A stretch of 64,000 nt of DNA from Escherichia coli (GTDB lineage Bacteria; Pseudomonadota; Gammaproteobacteria; Enterobacterales; Enterobacteriaceae): the NCBI RefSeq assembly GCF_003334785.1, contig NZ_QOWV01000018.1; one strand, given 5' to 3'. This document shows positions 1-48,724 of this stretch, piece by piece. Each line of letters starts with the position of its first letter. The first letter of the stretch is position 1. Under the pieces are notes generated by a model. It was given only the letters and a program-made list of their open reading frames with translations, made no database searches and was not told where the DNA came from. The position numbers were made by a program, and so were the translations under genes.

Positions 1-62
1 AGTGGTGGCGCATTATAGGGAGTTATTCCGGCCTGACAAGAGGAAATTTAAAATAATTTTCT
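1..62 (-). promoter_or_regulatory. rrnA P1: rRNA operon P1 promoter (rrnA-type) reading leftward out of the window
   Basis: Reverse complement of 1..62 reads tcagaaaattattttaaatttcctcTTGTCAggccggaataactcccTATAATgcgccaccAct. -35 TTGTCA at 34..39, 16-bp spacer, -10 TATAAT at 12..17, GC-rich discriminator GCGCCACC at 4..11, predicted +1 near position 3, AT-rich UP element about 40..62. Matches the canonical rrn P1 architecture from memory. Confidence 0.85.
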
Positions 63-88
63 GACCGCGCATTTTTTATTCTTTATGC

Positions 89-634
89 TTATTTCAGCGT
101 CGGTTTGTCGGTTAAATGGGCGATTTCTCGGGCGAAATTCGCCACCTGCTCCCAATCGGTATAGACAACTTCTTTGCGCGTATCCGTTTCACCGCCTGAC
201 ATCTTCATAATCAGCTTGATCATAAAACGGTCGTACCAGCGATAACGTGGGTAACGCAGCGCCCCGGCAATGACCGCGCAGCGATCGGGACGCCATTGCG
301 AGTTCATCAGAAACTTGCGCGCGTAGCTGTTGGTCTGTGGAGTACGCTTCTCCGGTTTGCGCGCCACCAGATTCACGGAGTAAAAGGCGCTCGGCATCGA
401 ATTCAGCCGCGTCGCATTTTTTTTGACAAATTCCTGGAACGCTGAATGGTAGTGACCATAGCGAATAGAAGCACCAATGACCACACGGTCATAGTTTTCC
501 CACTGTGGTTCTTCAATGCGGTGCACATTGGCGACATCCGCCTGGATCCCCAGTTCTTTCAGTTCCGAAGCCAGGTAGGAGGCAATCTCGCGCGTTTGTC
601 CGTCCCTTGTTGAGAAAAGAATTAATGTTTTCAC
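89..634 (-). CDS. hemG: Protoporphyrinogen IX oxidase, flavodoxin-like (181 aa)
   Basis: ORF 89..634; translation [38 protein letters not shown]... recognised as HemG; position next to trkH. Confidence 0.93.
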
Positions 635-645
635 GTATTACTCCA

Positions 646-2097
646 TCATTCACGCCAGAAAGTCGGGGTAAAGAGCACCAGCAATGTAAAGACCTCGAGA
701 CGACCAAACAGCATGTTGGCAATCAGGATCCATTTAGCCACCGGGTTCATACTGGTAAAGTTATCAGCAACCACGCCAAGCCCTGGCCCCAGGTTATTCA
801 ATGTCGCAACAACCGACGCAAAGGCAGAAAAGTCATCCACGCCCGTGGCGATAATCGCCAGCATACTGACAATAAACACCAATGCATAGGCGGAGAAAAA
901 TCCCCAAACGGCTTCGAGGATACGTTCCGGCAGTGCGCGATTCCCCAGCTTAATGCTATAGACGGCGTTCGGATGCACCAGTCGTTTCAGCTCACGGTTC
1001 CCCTGCTTAAACAGCAGCAGGATGCGGATCACCTTCAGGCCACCGCCCGTTGACCCGGCGCAACCGCCGATAAAGGCTGAACATAAAAGCAGTACCGGCA
1101 AAAAGAGCGGCCAGCGGGCAATGCTGTCAGTTGTAAACCCGGCGGTTGTCGCCATCGACACCACCTGGAAAAACGCCTGGTTAATTGTCATCAGCGCCGA
1201 ACTGTAGACATTATGAAACCACAGTACGAGGGTACAAATAACCACCAGCGTAAACTGTACGCCGATAAACATGCGAAATTCCGGATCGCGCCAATAAACC
1301 TTCAGACTACGCCCACTTAACAGTGAAAAGTGCAGACCGTAGTTACAGCCGGAGATCAGCAGGAAGATAGCAATGATAGTGTTAATAGTCGGGCTATCGA
1401 AATAACCGATACTGGCATCATGTGTCGAGAAGCCGCCAATAGCGATAGTCGCAAAGCTATGGCCGATGGCATCAAAGGCATCCATTCCGGCAAACCACAA
1501 CGCCAGCGCACAGGCGACGGTCAGCAAGACATAAATCAACCACAGGGTTTTCGCCGTTTCCGCAATTCGCGGGCGCATTTTGTTATCTTTCAGCGGGCCG
1601 GGCATTTCTGCGCGATAGAGCTGCATCCCACCCACGCCGAGGATAGGCAGTATCGCAACCGCCAACACGATGATCCCCATCCCGCCAAACCATTGCAGCA
1701 TCTGGCGATAAAAGAGGATGGCGTGAGGGAGCGAATCCAGCCCCACCAGCGTAGTGGCTCCCGTAGTGGTCAGGCCAGAGAAAGATTCAAAAAACGCATC
1801 GGTAATCGTGAGGTTCGGGCTTTCCGAGAAGATAAAAGGGAGCGCACCGACGCTACCCAGCACGGTCCAGAACAGCACCACTATCAGAAACCCCTCACGG
1901 GATTTAAGTTCGCCTTTCTCTTTGCGGTTCGGCCACCACAGCATAGAGCCAATGGCGAGGGCGACAAAAAAGGTCTGGGTAAAAGCGCGGCCCGCTCCAT
2001 CCCGGTAGATGAGTGCTACCAGCCCAGGGATAATCATGGTCCCTGAAAATAAGATGACCAGTAGTCCAACGATTCGGGTAATGGCGCGAAAATGCAT
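646..2097 (-). CDS. trkH: Potassium uptake protein TrkH (483 aa)
   Basis: ORF 646..2097; polytopic membrane protein starting MHFRAITRIVGLLVILFSG, recognised as TrkH. Confidence 0.93.
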   Translation of the reverse strand: MHFRAITRIVGLLVILFSGTMIIPGLVALIYRDGAGRAFTQTFFVALAIGSMLWWPNRKEKGELKSREGFLIVVLFWTVLGSVGALPFIFSESPNLTITDAFFESFSGLTTTGATTLVGLDSLPHAILFYRQMLQWFGGMGIIVLAVAILPILGVGGMQLYRAEMPGPLKDNKMRPRIAETAKTLWLIYVLLTVACALALWFAGMDAFDAIGHSFATIAIGGFSTHDASIGYFDSPTINTIIAIFLLISGCNYGLHFSLLSGRSLKVYWRDPEFRMFIGVQFTLVVICTLVLWFHNVYSSALMTINQAFFQVVSMATTAGFTTDSIARWPLFLPVLLLCSAFIGGCAGSTGGGLKVIRILLLFKQGNRELKRLVHPNAVYSIKLGNRALPERILEAVWGFFSAYALVFIVSMLAIIATGVDDFSAFASVVATLNNLGPGLGVVADNFTSMNPVAKWILIANMLFGRLEVFTLLVLFTPTFWRE

Positions 2098-2135
2098 CTC
2101 TGCCGCTTCCTTAGTTCTGCAAAACGAAGTGGGGA

Positions 2136-2750
2136 TTATTCTTCAATCGCTAACAATTGCAATGAACCACGGCTAAAATCCGCCAGCTTTGCGGAAAATT
2201 CAGCCACTTTCGCCGCCGGAAGCGCCACCCGCAGCAGAACGAATGCCTGATAATCACTGTTGATAATTTTGCCGTCACACTGCCCCAGCAACGCTTCAAT
2301 GCCGGTTAACTGATGATATTCACATTGCAAAGTATATTCGGTTAATGGCGTCTTGCGTTGGGTCGTTAGCTGGCGCAGCGCCTGATTCACGCCGCCGCCA
2401 TACGCTTTCACTAACCCACCGGTGCCAAGCAATATGCCGCCGTAGTAGCGCACTACCACAGCGGTAATTTCCCCGACGCCGCTGCCCATTAGCTGGGCGA
2501 GCATCGGTTTACCTGCCGTTCCCGCCGGCTCCCCGTCGTCAGAGAAACCCAGCTGTTGAGAATCATCCGGCGCACCCGCGACCCACGCCACGCAATGGTG
2601 CCGGGCATCGGGGTGTTCTGCCCGCACCGATTCAACAAACGCTTTCGCCGCCTCAACGCCATCGGTATGCGCCAACATCGTTATGAAGCGGCTCTTTTTG
2701 ATCTCTTCAACGACCGTGACCGGTGCCGCAGGAATTAACCAGCTTTCCAT
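2136..2750 (-). CDS. yigZ: IMPACT-family protein YigZ (about 204 aa)
   Basis: ORF 2136..2753 begins MMESWLIP; the second Met (2750) is taken as the start to match the 204-aa length I recall. Synteny between trkH and pepQ. Confidence 0.85.
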   Translation of the reverse strand: MESWLIPAAPVTVVEEIKKSRFITMLAHTDGVEAAKAFVESVRAEHPDARHHCVAWVAGAPDDSQQLGFSDDGEPAGTAGKPMLAQLMGSGVGEITAVVVRYYGGILLGTGGLVKAYGGGVNQALRQLTTQRKTPLTEYTLQCEYHQLTGIEALLGQCDGKIINSDYQAFVLLRVALPAAKVAEFSAKLADFSRGSLQLLAIEE

Positions 2751-7639: not shown

Positions 7640-7822
<183 letters not shown>

Positions 7823-8662: not shown

Positions 8663-10156
8663 TCAGGCGCTTTTACCGTTGTTAAAAATAGCCAGTTCAT
8701 CCCAGATGGCGTCAATATGCGCGACAACATCTGGATCTTTTTTGATGGGACGTCCCCATTCACGCTGGGTTTCCCCCGGCCATTTATTCGTGGCATCCAG
8801 CCCCATTTTTGAACCCAGCCCGGAGACAGGCGAGGCAAAATCCAGATAATCAATAGGCGTATTTTCTACCAGAACAGTATCCCGCGCCGGGTCCATACGG
8901 GTGGTAATCGCCCAAATCACATCGTTCCAGTCGCGTGCGTTAACGTCATCATCGCAAACGATCACAAATTTAGTGTACATAAACTGGCGTAAGAACGACC
9001 AGACGCCCATCATGACGCGCTTCGCGTGTCCGGCGTACTGTTTTTTGATTGTCACTACCGCCAGGCGATAAGAGCAGCCTTCCGGCGGCAGGTAAAAATC
9101 GACAATTTCCGGGAACTGTTTTTGCAGAATCGGCACAAACACTTCGTTCAGTGCGACACCCAGCACCGCGGGCTCATCTGGCGGACGCCCGGTATAGGTG
9201 GAATGGTAAATCGCATCTTCACGCTGGGTAATATGCGTCACGGTAAATACCGGGAAACTATCGACTTCATTATAGTAACCGGTGTGGTCGCCATACGGCC
9301 CTTCCGGCGCAGTTTCGCCTTGTTCGATATACCCTTCCAGCACAATCTCCGCACTGGCGGGCACTTCAAGATCATTGGAGATACACTTCACCACTTCGGT
9401 CTTGGTGCCACGTAGCAATCCGGCAAACGCATACTCTGAAAGCGTATCCGGAACGGGAGTGACTGCACCGAGAATCGTGGCGGGATCGGCACCCAGCGCC
9501 ACAGAAACCGGGAAACGTTCGCCCGGATGCGCCGCACACCACTCCTGATAATCCAGCGCGCCGCCGCGATGCGACAGCCAGCGCATAATCAGTTTGTTTT
9601 TACCAATCAGCTGCTGGCGATAAATGCCCAGATTCTGCCGCTCTTTATGTGGGCCGCGCGTCACTGTCAGCCCCCAGGTAATCAGCGGCGCGGCATCTTC
9701 CGGCCAGCAGGTCATAATGGGAATGCGATTGAGATCGACGTCATCGCCAGAGACGATTTTTTGTTGGCAGGGCGCACCACGCAGCCGCTTTGTCGGCATG
9801 TTCAATACTTGCTTAAACTGCGGCAGTTTATCAAACAGGTCGCGGAAACCTTTTGGCGGCTCCGGCTCTTTCAGAAACGCCAATAATTTACCAACTTCAC
9901 GCAGCGCCGAAACATCTTCCTGCCCCATGCCCATCGCCACGCGCTTTGGCGTACCGAACAGGTTGCACAGCACCGGCATTGAGTAGCCTTTAGGGTTTTC
10001 GAACAACAGCGCAGGCCCACCGGCACGCAAAGTGCGGTCAGCAATTTCAGTGATTTCCAGATGCGGATCCACCGGGAGCGTGATACGTTTTAGCTCACCC
10101 TGCTGTTCAAGCAGCGTCAAGAAGTCGCGTAAATCGTTATATTTCATGGCGTCCAT
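8663..10156 (-). CDS. ubiD: 3-octaprenyl-4-hydroxybenzoate decarboxylase (497 aa)
   Basis: ORF 8663..10156; [58 protein letters not shown]... Confidence 0.93.
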
Positions 10157-13277: not shown

Positions 13278-15520
<2,243 letters not shown>

Positions 15521-48517: not shown

Positions 48518-48724
48518 AAAAAAACGCCTGCTCTTATTACGGAGCAGGCGTTAAAACAGGTCTGTATGACAACAAGTGGGTGCTTCACTCAACGTTGTGT
48601 CCATGGTGTCTGATGAGGCATAAGCGACATCTGTCAGTGGACGATAAGCACCGTAAACGGCTCTGCGTCATTCCGGAGTTTATGAGGCACTAAGGCGAAC
48701 ATAAGAGATGGAATGAGCATCTAC
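48518..48724 (-). ncRNA. glmZ: GlmZ small RNA (SraJ/RyiA), post-transcriptional activator of glmS
   Basis: Minus strand reads GUAGAUGCUCAUUCCAUCUCUUAUGUUCGCCUUAGUGCCUCAUAAACUCCGGAAUGACGCAGAGCCG...CAUACAGACCUGUUUUAACGCCUGCUCCGUAAUAAGAGCAGGCGUUUUUUU, which I recognise as GlmZ. It ends in an intrinsic terminator (hairpin gcctgctc-cgtaataa-gagcaggc plus U7), has a -10-like CATAAT just upstream (plus 48731..48736), and sits in the known hemY-aslA intergenic location. Confidence 0.88.

Follow-up and report, generated by a model that had tools for sequence, protein, structure and literature searches.

The rrnA promoter and its genomic context

The sequence analysed here, referred to as the window, is a stretch of 64,000 nucleotides from Escherichia coli (RefSeq assembly GCF_003334785.1, contig NZ_QOWV01000018.1). 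At its left edge lie the hemG gene, encoding the menaquinone-dependent protoporphyrinogen IX dehydrogenase, and, beyond the hemG stop codon, a promoter of the kind (P1) that precedes the rRNA operons. Both are on the minus strand, so that the promoter fires leftwards, out of the window. The trkH, yigZ and pepQ genes come after hemG, on the same strand. The coordinates of the features discussed below, including those located in the adjoining sequence of strain MG1655, are collected in Table 1.

The reverse complement of window positions 1 to ~70 contains, in order, an UP element, the hexamer TTGTCA, a 16-bp spacer, the hexamer TATAAT, a G+C-rich discriminator and a starting A. Read on the minus strand from window position 63 to position 1, the arrangement is AGAAAATTATTTTAAATTTCCTC-TTGTCA-GGCCGGAATAACTCCC-TATAAT-GCGCCACC-ACT, and the promoter is cut by the window edge at +3. 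In a consensus scan P1 scored 11/12, the top score within the first 3 kb. It is apparent that the elements typical of an rrn P1 promoter are present, i.e. near-consensus sigma-70 hexamers with a suboptimal 16-bp spacer, a G+C-rich discriminator (GCGCC...) between the -10 hexamer and the start, and an A/T-rich UP element at about -40 to -60. In rrnB P1, transcription begins 9 nt downstream of the -10 hexamer, and the start listed for rrnA in Table 1 is the one expected from the exact identity of the two promoters. Window positions 1 to 63 (minus strand) almost certainly belong to P1 of the rrnA operon of E. coli K-12, a sigma-70 promoter whose core and UP element they make up. The promoter is itself long known, among the most thoroughly studied of all, and textbook biology.

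Table 1. Features at the hemG–rrnA junction and elsewhere in the window. Positions are those of the window, except where marked L001 (MG1655 locus coordinates, in which window base 1 is position 9000).
Feature	Position	Strand	Remarks
Inferred rrnA P1 start (+1, A)	3..3	-	Placed from exact identity with rrnB P1
Discriminator GCGCCACC, -8..-1	4..11	-	G+C-rich; same as in rrnB P1
-10 hexamer TATAAT	12..17	-	Read from sequence and consensus scan
Spacer, 16 bp	18..33	-	Read from sequence
-35 hexamer TTGTCA	34..39	-	Read from sequence and consensus scan
UP element AGAAAATTATTTTAAATTTCCT, about -60..-39	about 42..63	-	A/T-rich; identical to rrnB P1 UP element
Fis site I, centre -71, GAATAAAAAATGCGC	67..81		11/11; intergenic, between hemG stop and UP element
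Predicted Fis site, centre -91, GACGCTGAAATAAGC	87..101		Only 8/11 in K-12; hemG codons 178–181 and stop
Predicted Fis site, centre -111, GCCCATTTAACCGAC	107..121		10/11 in K-12; inside hemG codons 172–176
Fis-consensus match, centre -222, GACCGTTTTATGATC	218..232		Perfect consensus; hemG codons 135–139; not claimed as a site
hemG	89..634	-	181 aa; GTG start; TAA stop at 89..91
Antisense ORF, 41 aa	85..210	+	Over hemG 3′ end; probably spurious
P2 (TTGACT, 16 bp, TATTAT)	L001 9081..9108		119 bp after P1 -35 hexamer (MG1655)
16S rRNA	L001 9290..10831		Rfam, 1578 bits
StyR-44 match	L001 11162..11270		Rfam, 125 bits
naRNA4	7692..7769	-	Rfam gathering-score match, 92 bits
Erse sRNA	14915..15166	-	Rfam gathering-score match, 319 bits
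GlmZ/SraJ	48518..48724	-	Rfam gathering-score match, 218 bits
Cluster of four tRNA genes	52348..52781	-	Rfam gathering-score matches

Window positions 1 to 2500 were 100% identical to the sequence of E. coli K-12 MG1655, and also to that of other strains, and gave a full-length match (at least 80% of the query) in 5425 of the 5426 complete E. coli genomes. Of those 5426 genomes, 5374 contained a match to at least 80% of a 500-nt segment that extends from the 3′ end of hemG across the P1/P2 leader. When the window was extended leftwards with the MG1655 sequence, the layout of an rrn leader was found: a tandem P2 promoter ~120 bp downstream of P1, a leader in which boxA (GCTCTTTAACAA) is visible, and a 16S rRNA gene that starts 290 nt to the left of window base 1. 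In the MG1655 annotation the order after hemG is 16S, tRNA-Ile, tRNA-Ala, 23S, 5S and then mobB; both tRNAs, the 23S and the 5S genes were confirmed by Rfam, and the gene name of this 16S in NC_000913 is rrsA. The position of hemG upstream and mobB downstream, the Ile/Ala tRNA spacer and the rrsA name together identify the operon as rrnA, on the basis of the MG1655 annotation around the match and, for the tRNAs, of Rfam. The P1 match thereby anchors the window on the hemG side of rrnA of E. coli K-12, in reverse-complemented orientation. A side observation concerns the rrnA spacer, in which a match to the Rfam family StyR-44 was located on the tRNA-Ala/23S side, just upstream of the 23S gene.

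The original prediction had read the first ~60 nt as a near-textbook rrn P1 promoter directed out of the window, had assigned the left edge to rrnA from its synteny with hemG, and had placed the hemG stop codon at 89..91. All of these readings were borne out, with the rRNA operon lying inside the ~300 bp to the left within which it was to be expected, and with P1 matching rrnB P1 exactly (see below). The layout also agrees with published accounts: rrn operons all carry two promoters, P1 and P2, some 120 bp from one another, together with an UP element, a discriminator and 3–5 Fis sites, and gel shifts at rrnA are in accord with this (PMC4696680).

The hemG stop codon is separated from the -35 hexamer by 46 nt, which are taken up by Fis site I and the UP element. 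No intrinsic terminator was found between the hemG stop codon and P1 (window 64..88; L001 8913..8961). Transcription of trkH–hemG presumably reads into the rrnA promoter region.

Fis-type sites in the rrnA upstream region of K-12

Fis sites consist of a 15-bp A/T-rich core with G/C and C/G bounds and Y-R steps at +/-(3-4) (PMC4784862), and the upstream activating regions of stable-RNA promoters hold several of them in helical register (PMC8099737). The number of Fis sites at rrnA is as previously reported, in the range of 3–5 per promoter (PMC4696680). Sequences were scored in this study at 11 positions, using the degenerate consensus GNNYRWWWWWYRNNC. The scan recovered the Fis sites of rrnB, which lie at -71, -102 and -143, with scores of 10–11/11 and, of the seven rrn P1 promoters of K-12, all but one had a site centred exactly on -71 with a score of at least 9/11.

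Upstream of rrnA P1, the scan located Fis site I and a predicted site centred on -111; a second predicted site, centred on -91, is a weak match in K-12 and emerges from the cross-species comparison below (Table 1). The perfect consensus is not enriched in the window, with seven matches as compared with 10 expected by chance, and lone matches therefore carry little weight. Good matches do, however, cluster near P1: those of at least 10/11 with both G/C bounds had a window-wide frequency of one in 842 nt, but the first 260 nt alone contained three. Further K-12 matches at -123, -134 and -222 are not claimed as Fis sites, their G/C bounds being either unconserved or explained by conserved amino acids; at -222, the score was at least 9/11 in 68% of species.

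It had been predicted that a Fis-binding region at about 63..160 would overlap the 3′ end of hemG. Such an overlap was found for the predicted -91 and -111 sites, while the -71 site proved to be intergenic. The combination of site I at -71 with phased upstream sites is recognized here by sequence and conservation only, and from these we infer that the predicted sites at -91 and -111 would be occupied by Fis.

Conservation of the hemG–P1 junction in the Enterobacteriaceae

A scan for HemG, with one genome per species, yielded 80 Enterobacteriaceae loci and an alignment of 81 sequences. The loci span Escherichia, Salmonella, Citrobacter, Enterobacter, Klebsiella/Raoultella, Kosakonia, Buttiauxella and Cedecea. 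In every locus that reached far enough, hemG was followed by an rrn P1 promoter; most draft contigs end at this point, as is expected at a repeat. P1 +1 lay 631 nt from the hemG start in all cases, with no net indel (81 Enterobacteriaceae species; window 87..634; loci L009–L088, 1201..1835), and this fixed distance made an ungapped alignment of the 81 sequences possible. Over the same 81 species the hemG stop codon wanders over five positions, and the HemG protein is 176–183 aa long.

Within P1, the number of parsimony changes per column averaged 0.3 for the -10 hexamer, 0.7 for the -35 hexamer and 1.1 for the discriminator, which was nearly invariant in 64 species. The T-tract of the UP element, at -53 to -48, was likewise nearly invariant across species.

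Further upstream, six near-invariant columns were observed. These constitute three G...C pairs, 14 bp apart, that recur with a 20-bp period: G-118 (81 of 81 species) with C-104 (79/81) in the -111 site, G-98 (78/81) with C-84 (81/81) in the -91 site, and G-78 (80/80) with C-64 (77/78) in the -71 site. The centres of all three pairs are conserved as A/T, namely T-111 (81/81), A-90 and A-72 to A-70, and the centre of the -91 site is A-rich across species. When mean Fis-consensus scores were determined for 565 positions, from -620, near the hemG start, to -56, the highest were those of the centres -71, -111 and -91. The -91 centre scored at least 9/11 in 74% of species.

It might be proposed that, upstream of -80, the phased G...C motifs serve H-NS or Lrp, which are other nucleoid proteins known from rrn P1 upstream regions, instead of Fis, or that they reflect intrinsic DNA curvature. 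Binding of H-NS has been reported for the promoter regions of rrnA, rrnB and rrnH (PMC4696680), and the region upstream of -80 is A/T-rich, with phased A-tracts. What is conserved, however, is exactly the pattern that marks Fis sites, in which an A/T-rich centre is bounded by G at -7 and by C at +7 (PMC4784862). Moreover, its proximal copy, at -71, occupies the Fis site I position that is common to rrn P1 promoters. G/C bounds at a distance of 14 bp are not known to be needed in the motif of H-NS or in that of Lrp, and we consider it improbable that these proteins, or curvature, account for the pattern in place of Fis.

Constraint on hemG codons

To quantify conservation within hemG, parsimony changes were counted on a neighbour-joining tree constructed from hemG codons 1–140 only; the 81 species are related, and counts of this type correct for kinship only roughly. 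Third-codon positions in hemG showed a mean of 16.3 changes. Codon 176 encodes 13 different residues and has undergone 31 amino-acid changes, but its third base, C-104, changed only twice; at codon 178 the amino acid changed 17 times and the third base, G-98, once. For the remaining 38 variable codons, third positions changed ~19 times on average, with a minimum of 7. Other third positions with three or fewer changes are found in Trp or Met codons, or where the amino acid is conserved or changes little (0–6 changes).

Comparable results were obtained for a leucine codon and for the stop codon. Leu174, at the centre of the -111 site, is encoded by TTA in 66 of the 71 species that have Leu there, as compared with 0–38% TTA at the 12 other Leu columns of hemG, where CTG usually dominates. 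When the hemG stop falls at codon 178, it is TAG in 19 of 22 species, whereas at other stop positions TAA predominates, by 51 to 8. A TAG stop at codon 178 keeps G-98, and its use fits selection for a G at -98. Examples of stops at codon 178 are provided by loci L035, L037 and L038 (locus positions 1732..1734, equivalent to window 101..103).

Constraint of this kind was not a general property of the hemG 3′ end. Third positions in codons 141–176 averaged 14.8 changes versus 17.5 elsewhere, a weak difference (p about 0.03), and for codons with three or more synonyms the slowdown at the 3′ end was not significant. Region-wide synonymous constraint is therefore not claimed. The original prediction that the hemG coding sequence is constrained by promoter architecture thus holds, across the 81 species, for C-104, G-98 and the TTA codon of Leu174, but for the 3′ end as a whole it finds only the weak slowdown just described. 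The activator sites of rrnA appear to fix a few hemG nucleotides, and to do so at the level of DNA rather than protein.

The invariant positions are situated within or beside the hemG coding sequence and stop codon, and it is conceivable that C-104, G-98 and the Leu174 TTA are kept by hemG itself, through codon usage, termination context, or structure or a terminator at the 3′ end of the mRNA. Variation in the length of the HemG C-terminus (176–183 aa) also makes end-of-gene effects conceivable. However, as the stop codon moves over its five positions, the G/C columns do not move with it, but are fixed relative to the promoter instead. Codon usage would not explain the TTA at Leu174, since TTA is disfavoured at the other 12 Leu columns. 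As regards the mRNA, no conserved RNA pairs were detected by RNAalifold in the region from -130 to -55 in 20 diverse species, and the absence of an intrinsic terminator between hemG and P1, mentioned above, argues against retention of these bases for termination. Finally, the invariant columns of hemG share the 14-bp G...C pattern and the 20-bp period with site I, which is intergenic. An origin of these constraints in hemG itself is, accordingly, unlikely.

A more far-reaching reading is that, throughout the Enterobacteriaceae, roughly the final ten codons of hemG serve two purposes at once. It seems reasonably likely, from the comparative data, that an indel-free array of three helically phased Fis sites for rrnA P1, superimposed on the hemG 3′ end, freezes C-104 and G-98 although the amino acids of their codons are free to drift, holds the rare TTA codon in place and dictates the choice of TAG over TAA where the stop coincides with G-98.

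Comparison with other stable-RNA promoters

All seven K-12 rrn upstream regions were aligned, by anchoring on TATAATGCGCC. The rrnB P1 promoter has the same sequence as rrnA P1 from about -67 to +3, i.e. over the UP element, TTGTCA, the spacer, TATAAT and the discriminator, and rrnC P1 has the same sequence from about -73 to +3. Beyond about -70 upstream, the seven regions are unrelated. Because homology ends at about -70, the hemG 3′ end is unique DNA outside the repeated rrn unit; an extension of rrn-operon homology into hemG was considered and rejected, as similarity to the other six operons ends at that point. The idea that window positions 1..62 resemble a promoter only by chance, or are what is left of an inactive one, can safely be set aside. 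Consensus scans do yield false positives (six promoter-like sites in 3 kb versus 2.5 expected), but over 70 nt the sequence does not differ at all from rrnB and rrnC P1, it is correctly placed with respect to P2 and 16S, its -35 hexamer, -10 hexamer and discriminator hardly vary among about 64 species, and the 500-nt P1/P2 stretch is matched in almost all of the complete E. coli genomes (see above).

The rrnA and rrnB promoters are alike in having Fis site I centred on -71, and in that a co-oriented upstream gene ends about 80–86 nt before +1. They differ in their distal Fis-type sites, which are located at -102 and -143 in rrnB but at -91 and -111, with 20-bp spacing, in rrnA. Co-oriented upstream genes end before P1 at -86 in rrnA (hemG), at -82 in rrnB (murI) and at -77 in rrnH (gmhB). 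Since murI ends at -82, sites II (-102) and III (-143) of rrnB lie inside murI coding DNA. Judging by position, the same dual use probably applies to murI–rrnB and to gmhB–rrnH. In rrnC, by contrast, the neighbouring gene, yieP, is divergent, so that no co-oriented coding end falls within the activating region. It was also observed that Fis site I of rrnH P1 reaches the gmhB stop codon.

A further parallel is found at tyrT, where Fis sites are situated at -71, -91 and -122, the first spacing being 20 bp, as in rrnA. The tyrT upstream activating sequence, though that of a gene other than rrnA, likewise presents several helically phased Fis sites at a stringently controlled stable-RNA promoter (PMC8099737).

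Proposed mechanism and significance

On the arrangement described above, RNA polymerase would bind the TTGTCA and TATAAT hexamers of rrnA P1, while the C-terminal domains of its alpha subunits would interact with the A/T-rich UP element. The open complex would be short-lived owing to the G+C-rich discriminator and the 16-bp spacer. In rrnB P1, the short-lived open complex confers sensitivity to ppGpp/DksA and to the initiating NTP, and this regulation may be carried over to rrnA P1 because the sequences are identical. Transcription would begin at window position 3 and proceed leftwards, via P2 and boxA, into the 16S rRNA gene.

Fis dimers bound upstream would activate rrnA P1. Site I, at -71, takes up the little space that separates the hemG stop codon from the UP element, and two more Fis-type sites in helical phase, at -91 and -111, cover the stop codon and the last ten codons of hemG. 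With the latter two sites over the end of hemG, that gene and the upstream activating region of rrnA would share DNA, and a few hemG nucleotides would be held by the promoter and not by the HemG protein.

The comparative signature of the hemG overlap is a small addition to a well-known system, and one that possibly has not been described before. At single-nucleotide resolution, it points to rRNA-promoter activator sites as a constraint on an upstream gene, both on its coding sequence and on which stop codon it uses. It would follow that 'synonymous' sites at gene ends beside strong promoters are not neutral, and that 'inverted' codon conservation, such as that at codons 176 and 178, may offer a simple way to map functional Fis sites. 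If the proposal is correct, the hemG 3′ end is a clean natural case of a transcription-factor array overriding the codon-level evolution of its neighbour.

Other features of the window

An open reading frame antisense to the 3′ end of hemG was considered as a possible gene. Its ATG is unconserved, A-83 being replaced by G in 66 of 81 species, and the frame is therefore probably spurious. Elsewhere in the window, Rfam matches at the gathering score identified naRNA4, the Erse sRNA, GlmZ/SraJ and a cluster of four tRNA genes, all on the minus strand (Table 1).
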